Part shown: positions 1-8,926 of the stretch, piece by piece
Layout of the letters: every line of letters starts with the position of its first letter
Numbering within the stretch: position 1 is the first letter of the stretch
DNA from: a virus
Lineage: Duplodnaviria; Heunggongvirae; Uroviricota; Caudoviricetes
Strand: one strand, 5' to 3'
Length of the DNA stretch: 9,401 nucleotides
IMG/VR virus record: IMGVR_UViG_2537561618_000016
Location: 1-9,401 of that record
Translations under genes and position numbers: made by a program
The notes under the pieces: model-generated
Database searches by the model: none
Told to the model about the DNA's origin: nothing
What the model saw: the letters and a program-made list of their open reading frames with translations, nothing else

Positions 1-554
1 TCAAACGCCCCGAATTGAAGCCAAATCATCCAGACCGCTCGGCTCCTCTTTCATTTCACGCTGACGGCGATAAATCTCGTCGTTGCGATCGACCTGCGCC
101 TGCACCATTGCTGCCGCCAGTTCTTCCAGTTCCGGCATCGACAGTTTCACCTGCTGATTATCGGCATCGCTCCACGCCATATGTGTTTGTGCTGTGACAG
201 ATTTTGCCAGCATGACTACCGGGGACAGGCGGCCCAGTGAGTCGGGGCCAGCATTCCAGATACGACCGTTCCATTCAAACGTGAACGGCTTCGCCTCCTG
301 TTCTGCGCGCCATGCTTCAATTTCCTGACGTCTGGCCTCTCTGGCCGCTTCCAGCATTTCTGGTGTCACAGTGAATGGGGCTATCTCACCCCATTTGCCA
401 CTTTGCAGTTCCTGCCAGATTTGCTGACCCGTCGGTGCGACATCATCAGCGGTGGCTGTGTAGGGGACTGCCTGGTCCCTGTCGTCAAAAAAACGTCACA
501 GTCTACTGCGCCACTTTCGGTATAACGGGGATTAATGATTTTTTTAATTTCCAC
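1..554 (-). pseudogene. Putative tail fibre assembly/chaperone protein of the second fibre cassette (DUF4376-like C-terminal domain), frameshifted as sequenced: N-terminal segment 497-554, C-terminal segment 1-495
   Basis: Minus-strand ORF 1-369 extends open to 495 in the same frame, with stop at 1-3. Its sequence (FEWNGRIWNAGPDS...WSDADNQQVKLSMPELEELAAAMVQAQ) fits the DUF4376 pattern seen in phage tail fibre assembly proteins. An upstream ORF in another frame (...TVEIKKIINPRYTESGAVDCDVF) joins it across a 7-A run at 487-493; one extra base would give a continuous ~184 aa protein. A GAGGA Shine-Dalgarno (562-566) sits 7 nt before a GTG at 554. It lies directly downstream of a tail fibre gene. 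Confidence 0.55.
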
Positions 555-561
555 GGTGCAT

Positions 562-566
562 TCCTC
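562..566 (-). promoter_or_regulatory. Shine-Dalgarno (GAGGA) for the second chaperone gene, 7 nt upstream of GTG start at 554
   Basis: Plus-strand tcctc at 562-566 is GAGGA on the coding strand, followed by a 7-nt spacer and GTG. Confidence 0.4.
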
Positions 567-692
567 ACGATGTGCGAATAAAAAGCCCGGGCATTGCGCC
601 AGAGACATGTGCATCCGGCACCCCGGACAGGGCGCAATATGACCCCGGTAATGAATGCTCTGAACATCCCGTAATGAAAAATTGTGGGGATA

Positions 693-1979
693 CTATATAC
701 GTTCCGGTGGGAGTACTGGGCACTGAAATCCCCACCGGTCCCAGTCGTGAGCCTCTGTATGACTGCCCCCTGACAAGTCTGATGACTTTATCACCGTCAG
801 CTTCTCCTGGTACGCAGCAATAATCAGCCCGCCAATGTCAGGGTCTCCCCATCTGTTGCGGACAGAGCTCGCCACGATTCTGTAAATAATATCTTCTGTG
901 GTTATATTTATTTTCACCCAGCCAGTCAGTCTGGATATGGGCCAGTAGCAGTAGCGGGTGTGATAAATGGGGCCGTTAATGCCGTAAAAAGTAAGGGATT
1001 TGGCTCTGTACCGCGGTTCTGTTGTCTCAGGGCGTGCATCAGTCCACCGGATGCTGAGCACCCCTTCAAACCGTGTGTCGGGTATGATGATGCCGTAAGG
1101 GCCAGCAACGGAATATTCACCTGGCAGCGCATTCCTTACCCAGGCCAGGAAATCACTCTTAGTGTCAAAACGGATAACATCTTCAGGCAGAAAAGCACAC
1201 CCAAAGCCGAATGCGCCGGGTATCGCCAGACGGCCTTTTGTCCGGTCGTAAATGTCGCTCTGTGCTTCCATCGTGGCCGCACTTTTCAGCCCCAGATTAT
1301 CCCGGGACTTCTGTTGTGCCTTTTCGCCTGCTGCTGCGATTTCAGACAGATGGTTAGCCGTTTTCAGAGTGCCGGTCAGCGCAGCATCAATGTCATTTTT
1401 GGCCTGCTCTGCTGCGCGGGCATAACCTGCGGCATCCTGTGCGCTCTGTCCGGCTGCGGCTGCATTTGCTCCTGTGCTTGTCACATCTTCCGCAGTGGCC
1501 TTTCTGTCCTCAGCTGTGACGGTTGCATCCTGTCGGGCTTTCTCCGCAAAACGTTGTGCATCATCACGGGCCGTTGCGGCTGCCGCCACATCCTGCGCCG
1601 TCTGCTGTGCGTTTCCGGCTGCGGCCCCGGCGCTCTGCTGCGCCTGCGCCACCATTTCCTCAAAGCGTTTGACGACATCCGGTTTCAGGTCGCCCTCATC
1701 AGGAGCAATCAGAAAGTCATTCAGCGTGCCGGGCTTTGAGTCCTCATATACAGCAATGTCGCCAACGTTGTACTCGTTGCGCCAGTCCTGTTTCAGATAC
1801 ACACCATATTTTCCAGTCCGCGCATGGAAACAGTATTCACCATCGTTTCCTGTCATCACATCAGCAACAGTGTTCATCACCACTTCCGGGGTGTTTACCC
1901 GGGATTTCAGAATAATATGGTATCCGGACATGGGGATACCTGCGCCATCAGTCAGCGCACCTGATATCACTACAGACAT
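693..1979 (-). CDS. Tail fibre protein (428 aa) with lambda Stf-like N-terminal anchor domain and Ala/Gln-rich shaft
   Basis: The N-terminus MSVVISGALTDGAG...VYEDSKPGTLNDFL closely follows the conserved N-terminus of lambda Stf and lambdoid prophage side tail fibres (MAVKISGVLKDG...TVYEDSQPGTLNDFL, from memory), followed by a low-complexity Ala-rich region. ATG at 1979 lies 23 nt after the upstream chaperone stop; stop TAG at 693-695. Confidence 0.8.
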   Translation of the reverse strand: MSVVISGALTDGAGIPMSGYHIILKSRVNTPEVVMNTVADVMTGNDGEYCFHARTGKYGVYLKQDWRNEYNVGDIAVYEDSKPGTLNDFLIAPDEGDLKPDVVKRFEEMVAQAQQSAGAAAGNAQQTAQDVAAAATARDDAQRFAEKARQDATVTAEDRKATAEDVTSTGANAAAAGQSAQDAAGYARAAEQAKNDIDAALTGTLKTANHLSEIAAAGEKAQQKSRDNLGLKSAATMEAQSDIYDRTKGRLAIPGAFGFGCAFLPEDVIRFDTKSDFLAWVRNALPGEYSVAGPYGIIIPDTRFEGVLSIRWTDARPETTEPRYRAKSLTFYGINGPIYHTRYCYWPISRLTGWVKINITTEDIIYRIVASSVRNRWGDPDIGGLIIAAYQEKLTVIKSSDLSGGSHTEAHDWDRWGFQCPVLPPERI

Positions 1980-2002: not shown

Positions 2003-2547
2003 TCAGGAAGAACCTTCCGGAGAGGCGGGCCATTCAATGGCGTTGTATGAGGATTTATCAGTGATGGTGCTGAAATCCATCGCCTGCAGCGATTTCGCGT
2101 AAATACGACAGGCTTTCAGCTTTTCTTTATCTTCGTCGCTGATTAACCCCAGCAGCAGGTCTTCTTCCCATTCCCCTGTCCGGGCACTGACCTGAGCCAG
2201 AAGGGCATCACGCTCATCTTCCGCTTTGAGTCTGTAGTCAAAGACAAATTCATCATTGCGGTAAAACCAGTAACCCGGCGCGGTAATCCGTCGGTTAGTG
2301 GTAATATCCGGAACTTCGATAACGCTGGCATTGCGTGGCTCGATGCCTGTCACATCCTTACCGACCCACACCACGCGACCATCTCCGGTGTAAGCTATTT
2401 TTATTGTGTCGCTGGCGAAATTCTTCAGCTCTTCATACCAGTTTTTCCGTCTTCTGAAAAAAGCCAGGTGACCGAATATCGTTTTGTCATCTGATATTGT
2501 TCTGCTGTTTTCGGATTACCCGCAGTAATATTTTTTAAATGCAACAT
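2003..2547 (-). pseudogene. Tail fibre assembly protein (lambda Tfa / e14 TfaE family), frameshifted as sequenced at a 5-T run (plus 2442-2446)
   Basis: ATG at 2547-2545 encodes [35 protein letters not shown], matching the canonical Tfa N-terminus ([19 protein letters not shown]...YTEDGKNWYEE). After the A5 run the Tfa sequence continues in the -1 frame (NWYEELKNF...SVIEVPDITTNRR...ISDEDKEKLKACRIYAKSL...IEWPASPE) to the stop at 2003-2005. One extra A restores a ~181 aa protein. The start is 2 nt after the fibre stop, suggesting translational coupling. Confidence 0.85.
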
Positions 2548-5864: not shown

Positions 5865-6566
5865 TTATGCCTCCTGGAGTTTCACACTGATATCCGACAC
5901 ATCCAGAACCGGAATCTCATCTATCCCGAAAGTGACAGCCGTTGTCCATGACGAACCATCACGGCTCACAGTAAGGCCCAGAATATCAATATGTTCCGGA
6001 TCGGTTTTGTAAATGCCGGCATAGTAGCGCCCGGCAGAGACAACAGAGGCAACTCTTGCCCGCAGACCACCATCTGTACCATTAAATGCGTCCAGCACGG
6101 ATTGCTGTACCTGTCGGGTAATATCTGAAGGCAGGTAGTCACTTTTTTTCAGCGTCACACTGACATGCAGACTGACGGGTTTGAGTGTCTGCCAGCTGAT
6201 CACGTATTCAGGATACGGCGGATCGTACTCCTTATCTGCAACAGTGAACGTTGTGTTGCCATTCATATCAATACCCGGCGGAGCCTTACGCCAGATGGCC
6301 GCCGCGATATCTGCCGGGCTGCCGCCGTACACGCCAACATAAAGCGAACCGGGTGTTAATGGATACTGACTGACTCCGGCTTTTTGTTCTGTTTTTTTCG
6401 GATTATGGGTGACGTAAACATCCACCACGTTTTCTACCGTGGAGAGTATTTCACCCCGGATGGCTTCCAGAATATTCCGGGCATTACGGGCAACTGAATT
6501 ACGTCGGCGGTTTTCAAAGTCCGCACGGGTTTCCTCATCGCTGCCCGGCACACCGGCACGGGCGTT
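5865..6566 (-). pseudogene. Baseplate assembly protein J-like (P2 gpJ / Mu gp47 position), 5'-truncated at the IS600-like element
   Basis: The reading frame is open from the IS boundary (6566) to the stop at 5865-5867 (233 codons), with no credible start or Shine-Dalgarno. It is immediately upstream of the gpI-like gene. The J-family assignment is by synteny only. Confidence 0.5.
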
Positions 6567-6630
6567 TGAGGTAGCCTGAGTTTAACGGACACTCCTTCCT
6601 GAAATAGAATGGCATCAGAAGGAGCTAATA

Positions 6631-6918
6631 ATGAGCAGAAAAACCCAACGTTACTCTAAAGAGTTCAAAGCCGAAGCTGTCAGAACGGTTCTTGAAAATC
6701 AACTTTCGATCAGTGAAGGCGCTTCCCGATTATCTCTTCCTGAAGGCACTTTAGGACAATGGGTTACCGCCGCCAGAAAAGGGCTCGGTACTCCTGGTTC
6801 CCGCACGGTGGCTGAACTGGAATCTGAAATTCTGCAACTGCGTAAGGCGTTAAATGAAGCTCGCCTTGAGCGAGATATATTAAAAAAGCAACAGCGTATT
6901 TTGCACAGGAGTCACTGA
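6631..6918 (+). CDS. IS600-like transposase OrfA (HTH DNA-binding), 95 aa as sequenced
   Basis: MSRKTQRYSKEFKAEAVRTVLENQLSISEGASRLSLPEGTLGQWV...LERDILKK is an IS3-family OrfA. The C-terminal tail KQQRILHRSH looks aberrant; the -1 frame gives the expected ATAYFAQESLKNTR ending. Confidence 0.85.
   Translation: MSRKTQRYSKEFKAEAVRTVLENQLSISEGASRLSLPEGTLGQWVTAARKGLGTPGSRTVAELESEILQLRKALNEARLERDILKKQQRILHRSH
6882..6888 (+). other. A AAA AAG slippery heptamer of IS600-like orfA (A6 tract); orfB frame opens here but is +1, not -1, to orfA
   Basis: Codons tta aaa aag are in the orfA frame; the orfB frame (KSNSVFCTGVTEKYALIEQWRQQFPIEVMCQVF...) is open from 6884. Confidence 0.6.
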
Positions 6919-6964
6919 AAAATACGCGTTAATCGAACAATGGCGACAACAATTTCCCATTGAA

Positions 6965-7786
6965 GTGATGTGTCAGGTATTTGGTGTATCCAGGAGCGGT
7001 TATTACAACTGGGTACAGCATGAACCCTCAGACAGAAAACAAAGTGATGAGCGGCTAAAACTGGAGATTAAGGTGGCACATATCCGCACTCGCGAAACAT
7101 ATGGAACCCGGCGGCTCCAGACGGAGCTGGCAGAGAATGGCATCATCGTTGGTCGTGACCGACTGGCACGTCTTCGTAAGGAGCTGAGGCTACGCTGTAA
7201 GCAGAAACGCAAGTTCAGAGCGACTACGAACCCGAACCACAATCTGCCAGTTGCGCCAAATCTGCTGAACCAGACGTTCGCTCCTACAGCACCAAATCAA
7301 GTCTGGGTGGCGGACCTGACGTATGTTGCCACACAGGAAGGATGGTTGTACCTCGCTGGCATCAAAGATGTTTATACGTGCGAAATTGTCGGCTACGCCA
7401 TGGGAGAGCGCATGACAAAAGAGCTGACAGGTAAAGCCCTGTTTATGGCGCTCAGGAGCCAGCGCCCACCTGCCGGGCTAATCCACCACTCTGATCGAGG
7501 TTCACAGTACTGCGCATACGATTACCGGGTCATACAGGAGCAGTTTGGTCTGAAAACATCAATGTCGCGTAAAGGTAACTGTTACGACAACGCTCCGATG
7601 GAAAGCTTCTGGGGAACGCTGAAAAATGAGAGCCTGAGCCACTATCGTTTTAATAACCGGGATGAAGCCATCTCAGTAATACGGGAATACATTGAGATTT
7701 TCTACAATCGTCAGCGTCGTCACTCTCGTCTGGGGAATATCTCCCCGGCAGCCTTCAGGGAAAAACATCATCAGATGGCTGCTTAA
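6965..7786 (+). CDS. IS600-like transposase OrfB (DDE integrase-type catalytic domain), 273 aa from the first in-frame start; frame open from 6884
   Basis: IS3-family OrfB hallmarks: SRSGYYNW, WVADLTY, HSDRGSQY, NAPMESFWGTLK, YNRQRRHS. Confidence 0.85.
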   Translation: MMCQVFGVSRSGYYNWVQHEPSDRKQSDERLKLEIKVAHIRTRETYGTRRLQTELAENGIIVGRDRLARLRKELRLRCKQKRKFRATTNPNHNLPVAPNLLNQTFAPTAPNQVWVADLTYVATQEGWLYLAGIKDVYTCEIVGYAMGERMTKELTGKALFMALRSQRPPAGLIHHSDRGSQYCAYDYRVIQEQFGLKTSMSRKGNCYDNAPMESFWGTLKNESLSHYRFNNRDEAISVIREYIEIFYNRQRRHSRLGNISPAAFREKHHQMAA

Positions 7787-7829
7787 AAAAAGAACAAATG
7801 GTAGTGTCCGCTATTGCCAGTACACCTCA

Positions 7830-8926
7830 TTTTACAGCCCCGTCCGGGCTGTATGTTTTCACCAGCTTATCCAGTGATCGTTTTGAAAATGGCTGCATTG
7901 GATCACGTGGCTGCAAAAATACATAATCCCTGTTGCACTCAGGAACTGAATCACGCCAGGCTTTCTGCTCGTCGATAATCCGCCGGATCTCAGGCGTTAT
8001 CGGCAGGCGGAAAGCCTTTTGTGTTTTCATAGCCCCTCGCATGCCGATAACCCCTTCCGGATAAACAATTTCACCAGCCTCCTCGTAAACGTAGTCCCAG
8101 CGCAGGTTATGGACATTAATCGGACGAACACCAGTGATGATCATGAAGCGAACAGCATTCTTCTGGTGTACAGAGGTGCAGGCAGCAACATTGAGCCAGA
8201 GTCGGGCGATTGATTCAATATCGGTAAAAAGCCGTGTGGGGGTAGGTTTCTGTACGCGGGAGGAAACATAATCATCTGGCAGACTGGCGGCAACATTGCG
8301 GCCGTTGCAAAGAGTAGGTGCGCAGAACTTCCAGAACCGACGGAGCTCGGCAAACAACTCCAGGGCGTTATTGTTCGAGCGAGTGGCGATCCACTCGTCC
8401 AGCACTTCCACCAGCCGATTGTATGTTACGTCGCTGAACACCTCACGCTCGCCGAACGTTGCTTTAATCCGGTCGATACGCACCCCGTAGGTTGTGAAAC
8501 TGTCCGGGCTCAGCTTCTGCCGGGCTACTTTGGCTTTGGGTCATCCCGGTACATTTCCAGCGCTGCATGTACGGACTCTGCCCGCAGTCCACCGTCAGCC
8601 ATACCTAGTGCTTTTTCGCGCGCCAGCTGGATAACGAGCTCCGGCCACTCGCCGAGCTTTTTACCTTTGAGGCCCATCTTTTTTGGAAACTCGGCGTAAA
8701 ATGTAACCTTACCGGCTTTGCTGAAATCGATACGGAGATAGTTCTCTTTTTCGTATTTGGAACGGCGAGCCACGCCGGAAGCAGCGAGGATGATTTTGGC
8801 GGCAGCAACACAGATTTTCATGTGTGCGCTGGTATAGGGGGGTTTACAGGCGTCCCATTTTTCAGATGCGGCTAAAACATCGTCATTATTGGGGCTATCC
8901 GGATTATGTGTTACAGTGCGCGGCAT
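7830..8926 (-). pseudogene. Phage integrase (tyrosine recombinase, P4-type with arm-binding N-terminal domain), frameshifted near 8529-8537 and 3'-truncated by the IS600-like element
   Basis: ATG at 8926 with AAGGA Shine-Dalgarno. The N-terminal segment (...KVTFYAEFPKKMGLKGKKLGEWPELVIQLAREKA...) resembles the P4-type arm-binding domain and stops at 8525. The downstream segment continues in the -1 frame from 8540 and carries box I (ITGVRPINVHNLRWDYV) and the lysine hairpin (MKTQKAFRLPITPEI). The frame runs into the IS terminus at 7829, and the catalytic H-x-x-R and Tyr regions are absent. Confidence 0.75.

Follow-up and report, generated by a model that had tools for sequence, protein, structure and literature searches.

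The window analysed here is the whole stretch of 9,401 nucleotides. The exact 57-aa, 122-aa and 428-aa products of the region were found on one contig only when approximately 15 billion proteins were searched, namely on AFHC01000047.1 (40,864 nt) of Shigella flexneri 4343-70, the end of which is located 239 nt from window position 1. The gene order is acpS, an integrase fragment, IS600, a truncated baseplate J gene, a DUF2612 gene and a fibre 1 gene cut by IS2, followed by chaperone 1 (Caudo_TAP), fibre 2, the DUF4376 chaperone and, as seen in relatives, ipaH. The baseplate and first-fibre genes are interrupted by IS600 and IS2, and head, sheath or tube genes are absent from the stretch examined. 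Orthologous loci in other Shigella genomes harbour this remnant too, IS insertions included. The locus is best explained as a phiP27-like prophage remnant of S. flexneri that is fixed and degraded. The features relevant for this study are listed in the direction of the coding strand:

6882 to 6887: A6 in the contig, A7 in relatives (private indel)
2003 to 2547, minus strand: chaperone 1 gene (Caudo_TAP; 181 aa in relatives), split into ORFs of 40 aa and 116 aa
2442 to 2446: A5 in the contig, A6 in relatives (private 1-nt deletion, the lesion in chaperone 1)
565 to 1979, minus strand: tail fibre 2 gene (phage_tail_N family), ~470 aa in relatives (P0030, 471 aa)
806 to 807, minus strand: GG, GGG in all relatives compared (private 1-nt deletion)
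577 to 592, minus strand: GCCCGGGC at 592-585, then TTTTTATT at 584-577, inside the intact fibre frame (..A M P G L F I R..)
562 to 566, minus strand: Shine-Dalgarno sequence GAGGA, with a 7-nt spacer to the GTG, overlapping the natural fibre stop
1 to 554, minus strand: DUF4376 tail-fibre chaperone gene (second chaperone), identified by Pfam, phrog_1141 and an alignment with homologues (A2)
552 to 554, minus strand: GTG start codon, in frame with an ATG at 614 and supported by homologues
487 to 493, minus strand (A7 on the plus strand): T7 run and frameshift site, the coding strand reading GTTTTTTTG (T8 or T9 in relatives)
8 to 11, minus strand: GGGG, GGG in all relatives compared (private 1-nt insertion)
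Beyond window position 1, towards the contig end: two further private indels

The ORF list contains two minus-strand frames for the second chaperone, 381 to 614 (77 aa, ATG start) and 1 to 369 (122 aa, GTG start). The original prediction regarded both as parts of one gene broken at the A7/T7 run, and the analysis bears this out. Translation of the record from the GTG at 554 gives a 57-aa product with a stop codon at 383-381, and no stop interrupts the downstream frame between the T-run and position 1. With one additional T at the run, translation yields a continuous protein of 187 aa. Intact relatives have T8 in the run, and their chaperone, 187 aa when counted from the GTG, extends 10 nt past window position 1. 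In a profile search, phrog_1141 (positions 4-190) aligned end to end with the fused protein over residues 1-187 (E = 4e-87), whereas the match to the 57-aa frameshift product was confined to residues 1-25. The expected relationship to DUF4376 proteins was found as well, with 59.8 bits for PF14301 (cut-off 25) at residues 70-173, a domain that the 122-aa ORF alone also has. The homology of the N-terminal segment, singled out beforehand as the point to be examined, is supported by the match of its 22 N-terminal residues to chaperone N-termini. Residues I6, E13, D18, C19 and F23, all upstream of the tract, are invariant in the alignment, which includes 20 database homologues. Runs of seven A or T are frequent in the window (6, with 0.75 expected from mononucleotide shuffles), and the junction is meaningful because of the homology on both sides, not because of the run length. 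The GTG-initiated 169-aa ORF of T9 alleles was considered as an independent start of the C-terminal segment and rejected, since the 22 N-terminal residues are conserved in distant homologues.

A database search yielded 1791 relatives; of those with 75-79% identity, most are 187-193 aa long. No match of the fused protein to Caudo_TAP (PF02413) was obtained in the Pfam search at E ≤ 1, and a sequence search of the PDB gave no relative (best E = 0.28). Judged by these searches, the second chaperone is not a Tfa of the Caudo_TAP type. Its gene lies downstream of a tail fibre gene in the same orientation, with the fibre ending at 567-565 in relatives and the chaperone starting at 554. Domain and position together make 'putative chaperone' a reasonable label. 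Experimental support for fibre chaperones among DUF4376 proteins comes from Alteromonas phages, in which their genes follow those of the fibres; promotion of folding or trimerisation of the cognate fibre is shown only for these distant members (PMC7289586, PMC10579305). Like the protein described here, gp27 of Alteromonas phage V22 and gp9 of phage A5 carry a C-terminal DUF4376 domain (PF14301) and are encoded immediately downstream of the fibre. Their size is also similar (195-239 aa, with 187 aa here). They share the domain alone, without a close sequence relationship; in addition, the gene is frameshifted here and its chaperone role is putative. Much closer are WP_000551130.1 and WP_000551126.1 (UniProt Q3Z413_SHISS) from remnants in Shigella and enteroinvasive Escherichia coli, with ~99% identical DNA and the same fibre-chaperone-ipaH cassette. 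These intact copies show T8, and GGG at each of the two G-run sites; their annotation starts from the ATG at 614 (207 aa). In the 4343-70 contig, the insertion at 8-11 alters the chaperone C-terminus, which reads ..SIRGV before the stop codon instead of ..SIRAFDVE.

The position of the start codon was inferred previously from the Shine-Dalgarno sequence, with preference for the GTG at 554 over the ATG at 614. Comparison with homologues agrees with this choice. For 16 of the 20 database homologues in the alignment, the first methionine is aligned to the GTG or one residue upstream of it, and the homologue of E. coli SE11 has an ATG at the same position, 9 nt past the fibre stop. The 187-aa form (P0162) is already annotated in some S. 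flexneri records. The 207-aa RefSeq models, which start at the equivalent of ATG 614, overlap the fibre 3′ end by 50 nt and are restricted to the close clade; they are probably 20 codons too long. The overlap of fibre stop and Shine-Dalgarno sequence is an arrangement typical of translational coupling, which may apply to this gene pair.

Fibre 2 was originally considered the only intact fibre of the locus. It is, however, frameshifted. The ORF in the record (1979 to 693, 428 aa) ends at an early stop codon (TAG, 695-693), as the GG at 806-807 is one G short of every relative compared and shifts the frame of the last ~80 fibre codons. With GGG, the fibre reads on to the TGA at 567-565 and ends with ..GAMPGLFIRTS. 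This frame is supported by the diverged fibre of SE11, which ends with ..GLFIRVY, so that the C-terminal GLFIR motif is conserved. Since the fibre runs to 567-565, the palindrome and the T-run at 577-592 are fibre coding sequence (A-M-P-G-L-F-I) and not intergenic, as had been assumed. An intrinsic terminator between fibre and chaperone was also tried as a candidate and rejected: there is no stable GC-rich hairpin, the site is located inside the fibre ORF and it is not conserved in SE11. A scan of positions 1-2100 gave four terminator-like matches, all weak, compared to 2.1 ± 1.5 in shuffled sequences, which is background, and no promoter-like sites. The only match near the site, with five pairs at 603-586, occurs at background frequency and is likewise not conserved in SE11.

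The fibre 2 gene of the window also contains a segment (1434-1574) of ~141-147 extra nt, an alanine-rich repeat, relative to three of the four orthologous copies (422 aa). The segment matches the 471-aa fibre form found at paralogous cassettes, and could stem from gene conversion between paralogs or from mixed assembly of repeats. A chimera of paralogs at the contig end was considered in view of the 471-aa and 422-aa fibres, but fibres of 478 and 429 aa exist at one of the paralogous cassettes (locus A). ipaH, an effector gene in convergent orientation, comes next in most fetched fibre-DUF4376 cassettes of Shigella and enteroinvasive E. coli. It follows the cassettes whatever the type of the upstream prophage (phiP27-like, lambda-like or IS-truncated), with a sit-adjacent cassette (L005, L009) as the exception.

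The length of the T-run was compared across strains. All close relatives fetched at the outset have T8. Among complete E. coli genomes, 9 of 5,426 carry the sequence, in 48 copies that are apparently T8 throughout; the best-matching copy is T8 in all nine genomes, and T7 or T9 in none. Exact intact proteins of 207 aa were found on 735, 79 and 63 contigs, many of them named S. flexneri or S. sonnei. In three collections, an unbiased scan for the pattern detected 85 copies, with T8 in 70, T7 in 10, T9 in three, and T6 and T10 in one each; its genome-contig copies come from two genomes only and its metagenome copies number three, and both parts confirm T8. The T8 run is not kept in the wider family: homologues with 75-79% identity have GTTTTATTTG (SE11) or encode VLFEG (alignment A2) at this position.

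At the orthologous locus, T9 is present in two complete genomes and T8 in the other two assemblies. The ORFs specific for T9 (169 aa, beginning with MTFFFDD; 41 aa, ending with DCDVFF) were found on 64 and 119 contigs from sources that include Logan and ENA. The gene and its upstream flank contain no further private indel in the 12 fetched loci with T9, which come from nine assemblies. As an allele, T9 is clean and common in S. flexneri, and it is the one robust natural variant at the tract. Examples are SF2457T_0185 and AIL36402.1, with the same locus, haplotype and run and a gene that is also split; T9 is one base over the intact length and present in many independent assemblies, whereas T7 is one base under and without such support. 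Two paralogous fibre-chaperone-ipaH cassettes, A and B, occur with T8 and T9 in all four combinations in closely related, complete Shigella genomes (A/B states: T9/T8 in CP026765.1, T8/T9 in UAUS01000001.1, T9/T9 in CP034931.1 and T8/T8 in CP045941.1). These four combinations indicate that the run is a real hotspot of slippage, or of conversion.

Other rearrangements were also observed just after the tract. A deletion joins the fibre 3′ end to ..PYTATADD in P0064, which represents a cluster of 243 member sequences, and an IS junction is present at VPYTAT in S. flexneri 2a 301 (P0063, SF2024). In P0020, a 187-aa product, the T7 is offset by a +1 in a G-run ~100 nt further downstream, and 34 residues are out of frame; it is either a compensated frameshift or the result of two homopolymer errors.

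The distribution of T7 is different. IMG taxon ids track the date of import, and T7 is confined to older assemblies: it was found only in genomes with ids below 2.6e9 (10 of 27, compared to 0 of 42 with later ids; Fisher p = 2.5e-5). T7 and T8 genomes nevertheless occur side by side in a batch of consecutive IMG ids. Both detected copies have T7 in 4343-70 as well as in another T7 genome. The paralog backgrounds that bear T7 number at least five and differ widely, and each of them has a T8 twin that is much closer. In the protein collection, ORFs derived from T7 were found on seven contigs only, all from NCBI. Frameshifted genes receive no protein records from PGAP, and protein-based counts therefore under-sample T7. 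The closest orthologues of the window have T9, and from a true T9 the T7 would be a two-base undercall. The single T10 obtained by protein look-up (CP037996.1) is accompanied by four further private indels in a stretch of 1.1 kb. The lengths T7 and T10 are considered doubtful. The original prediction made its switch conditional on a tract length that is real and variable; this holds for T8 and T9, which vary between strains, but probably not for the T7 count in this record, which looks like an assembly artefact.

Private indels of the contig were scored against four orthologous loci, two of them in complete genomes (L022, CP026765.1; L024, CP026871.1; L023; L025). AFHC01000047.1 has seven private 1-nt indels but only nine substitutions relative to its closest orthologue. 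The indels comprise five run-shortenings, one run-lengthening and one deletion outside a run, and five are located no more than ~1050 nt from the contig end. Five of the seven, from the chaperone 1 site to the contig end, were also private in comparison to ten near-identical loci of complete Shigella genomes. Such a cluster of run indels at a contig end looks like the pattern of consensus homopolymer error. AFHC01 may have been sequenced on the 454 platform. In 454 assemblies of E. coli, consensus errors climb steeply with homopolymer length (PMC3045373). Six other T7 copies show no extra private indels within 940 nt, which limits the argument from noisy assembly to the 4343-70 contig and a few others (L007, L010, L011). 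In the spacer between chaperone and ipaH, a G5/G6 run (L006 10687, 132 nt beyond window position 1) is length-polymorphic in otherwise clean assemblies. The A-run at 6882-6887 belongs to IS600 (6564-7832) and is located in the orfA/orfB overlap, a programmed-frameshift region; it is A6 in the contig and A7 in all four orthologous loci, which is either another miscall or the mark of an inactivated IS copy.

These observations can be read in several ways. A miscalled T7 competes with a real strain-level T7, in which one T was lost by replication slippage while the fibre and chaperone 1 were hit by 1-nt deletions of their own during Shigella pseudogene decay. Prophage remnants of Shigella are indeed heavily decayed, with IS600 and IS2 fixed at this locus; the tract is mutable, as T9 shows; and T7 is present in four NCBI assemblies and ten IMG/VR copies, with the other T7 records clean outside the tract. 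Yet a ratio of seven private indels to nine substitutions is far above the natural ratio, and the indels are clustered at the contig end. T7 is also lacking in all 42 copies from newer genomes and in the Logan- and ENA-derived protein calls in which T8 and T9 occur, and its presence on at least five paralog backgrounds, and in all copies detected in the affected genomes, would demand many identical independent events. A true deletion in this strain is hence considered unlikely. It is far less probable still that the frameshifted alleles give some full-length chaperone by recoding, either through transcriptional slippage on the U-run or, for T7, through -1 ribosomal slippage on U UUU UUG. The T7 site, as read from the sequence, matches the slippery pattern X XXY YYZ, and the T9 allele would be restored by a 1-nt mRNA deletion alone; RNA polymerase of S. 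flexneri slips on runs of ~9 A or T (PMC1088944, PMC6925163). A run of T7 is, however, shorter than the ~9 nt from which genes show selection against slippage (PMC1088944), no stimulatory element was identified, the sole nearby hairpin-like match being weak and at background level, and the locus is in any case defective. Both the ancestral state and that of the majority is the in-frame T8, and because the ancestral gene is in frame, recoding is neither required nor conserved. The mxiE and spa33 genes of S. flexneri, by analogy with which transcriptional slippage is conceivable for T9 alleles, likewise consist of two overlapping frames joined at an A/T homopolymer, but there the split is the conserved functional state and the runs are ~9 long, whereas T8 is ancestral in the chaperone and its split arose as a derived lesion or by miscalling. 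Programmed transcriptional slippage as in mxiE was rejected for this gene, given that the run is only T7 and the split state is not the conserved one.

The original prediction envisaged the tract as an on/off switch for the chaperone. In such a contingency locus, slipped-strand mispairing would toggle between T8 (on) and T7 or T9 (off) and switch the fibre chaperone and hence fibre assembly. A change in length does toggle the frame (T8 in; T7, T9 and T10 out), T8 and T9 are polymorphic among strains on dozens to hundreds of contigs each from several sources, and their four combinations at two cassettes imply recurrent change or gene conversion. A run of 8 nt is, on the other hand, short for classical phase variation in enterobacteria proficient in mismatch repair, and this run is interrupted in homologues with 75-79% identity. 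T8 dominates in the unbiased copies (70 of 85) and, apparently, in all 48 copies of complete E. coli genomes. The stretch examined is a remnant lacking head, sheath and tube genes, with its baseplate and fibre cut by IS elements, and a switch would have no target there. With no working context and no virion genes in the stretch, a tract that is not conserved and a dominant T8, the switch could not be upheld and is regarded as highly improbable. Scarcely better are the prospects of a tract that is tunable in S. flexneri, whereby T8 and T9 would alternate at two cassettes, T9 might yield full-length protein through slippage, and the cassettes would be retained and modulated.

Taken together, the most plausible interpretation, to which we assign a probability of roughly 0.7, is that of a fibre chaperone in a degraded remnant, with T8 as its functional form, a slippage hotspot at the run of an apparently unselected gene and a T7 that is probably miscalled. 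The functional gene starts at the GTG at 554, reads through the T8 run with the codons for V-F-F-D and would be translationally coupled to the fibre. Its T8 run is a hotspot of slippage. From its gene content, the remnant is seemingly unable to build a virion, and the gene would therefore probably be under no selection; frame-breaking variants such as T9 persist, probably for this reason. The T8/T9 polymorphism would accordingly reflect neutral decay and not regulation. The T7 in the record would most likely be an artefact, namely a homopolymer miscall near a contig end of an old draft assembly, with a true length of T8 or T9.

Frameshifts at homopolymers, old draft assemblies and cryptic prophage remnants are all known kinds of feature, and the chaperone tract raises no new biological question. 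For the annotation of the locus, the chaperone starts with the GTG at 554, fibre 2 is frameshifted, the supposed terminator is coding sequence and T9 is the robust variant. The case calls for caution, as genes that are split at homopolymers in old drafts are easily taken for cases of phase variation.
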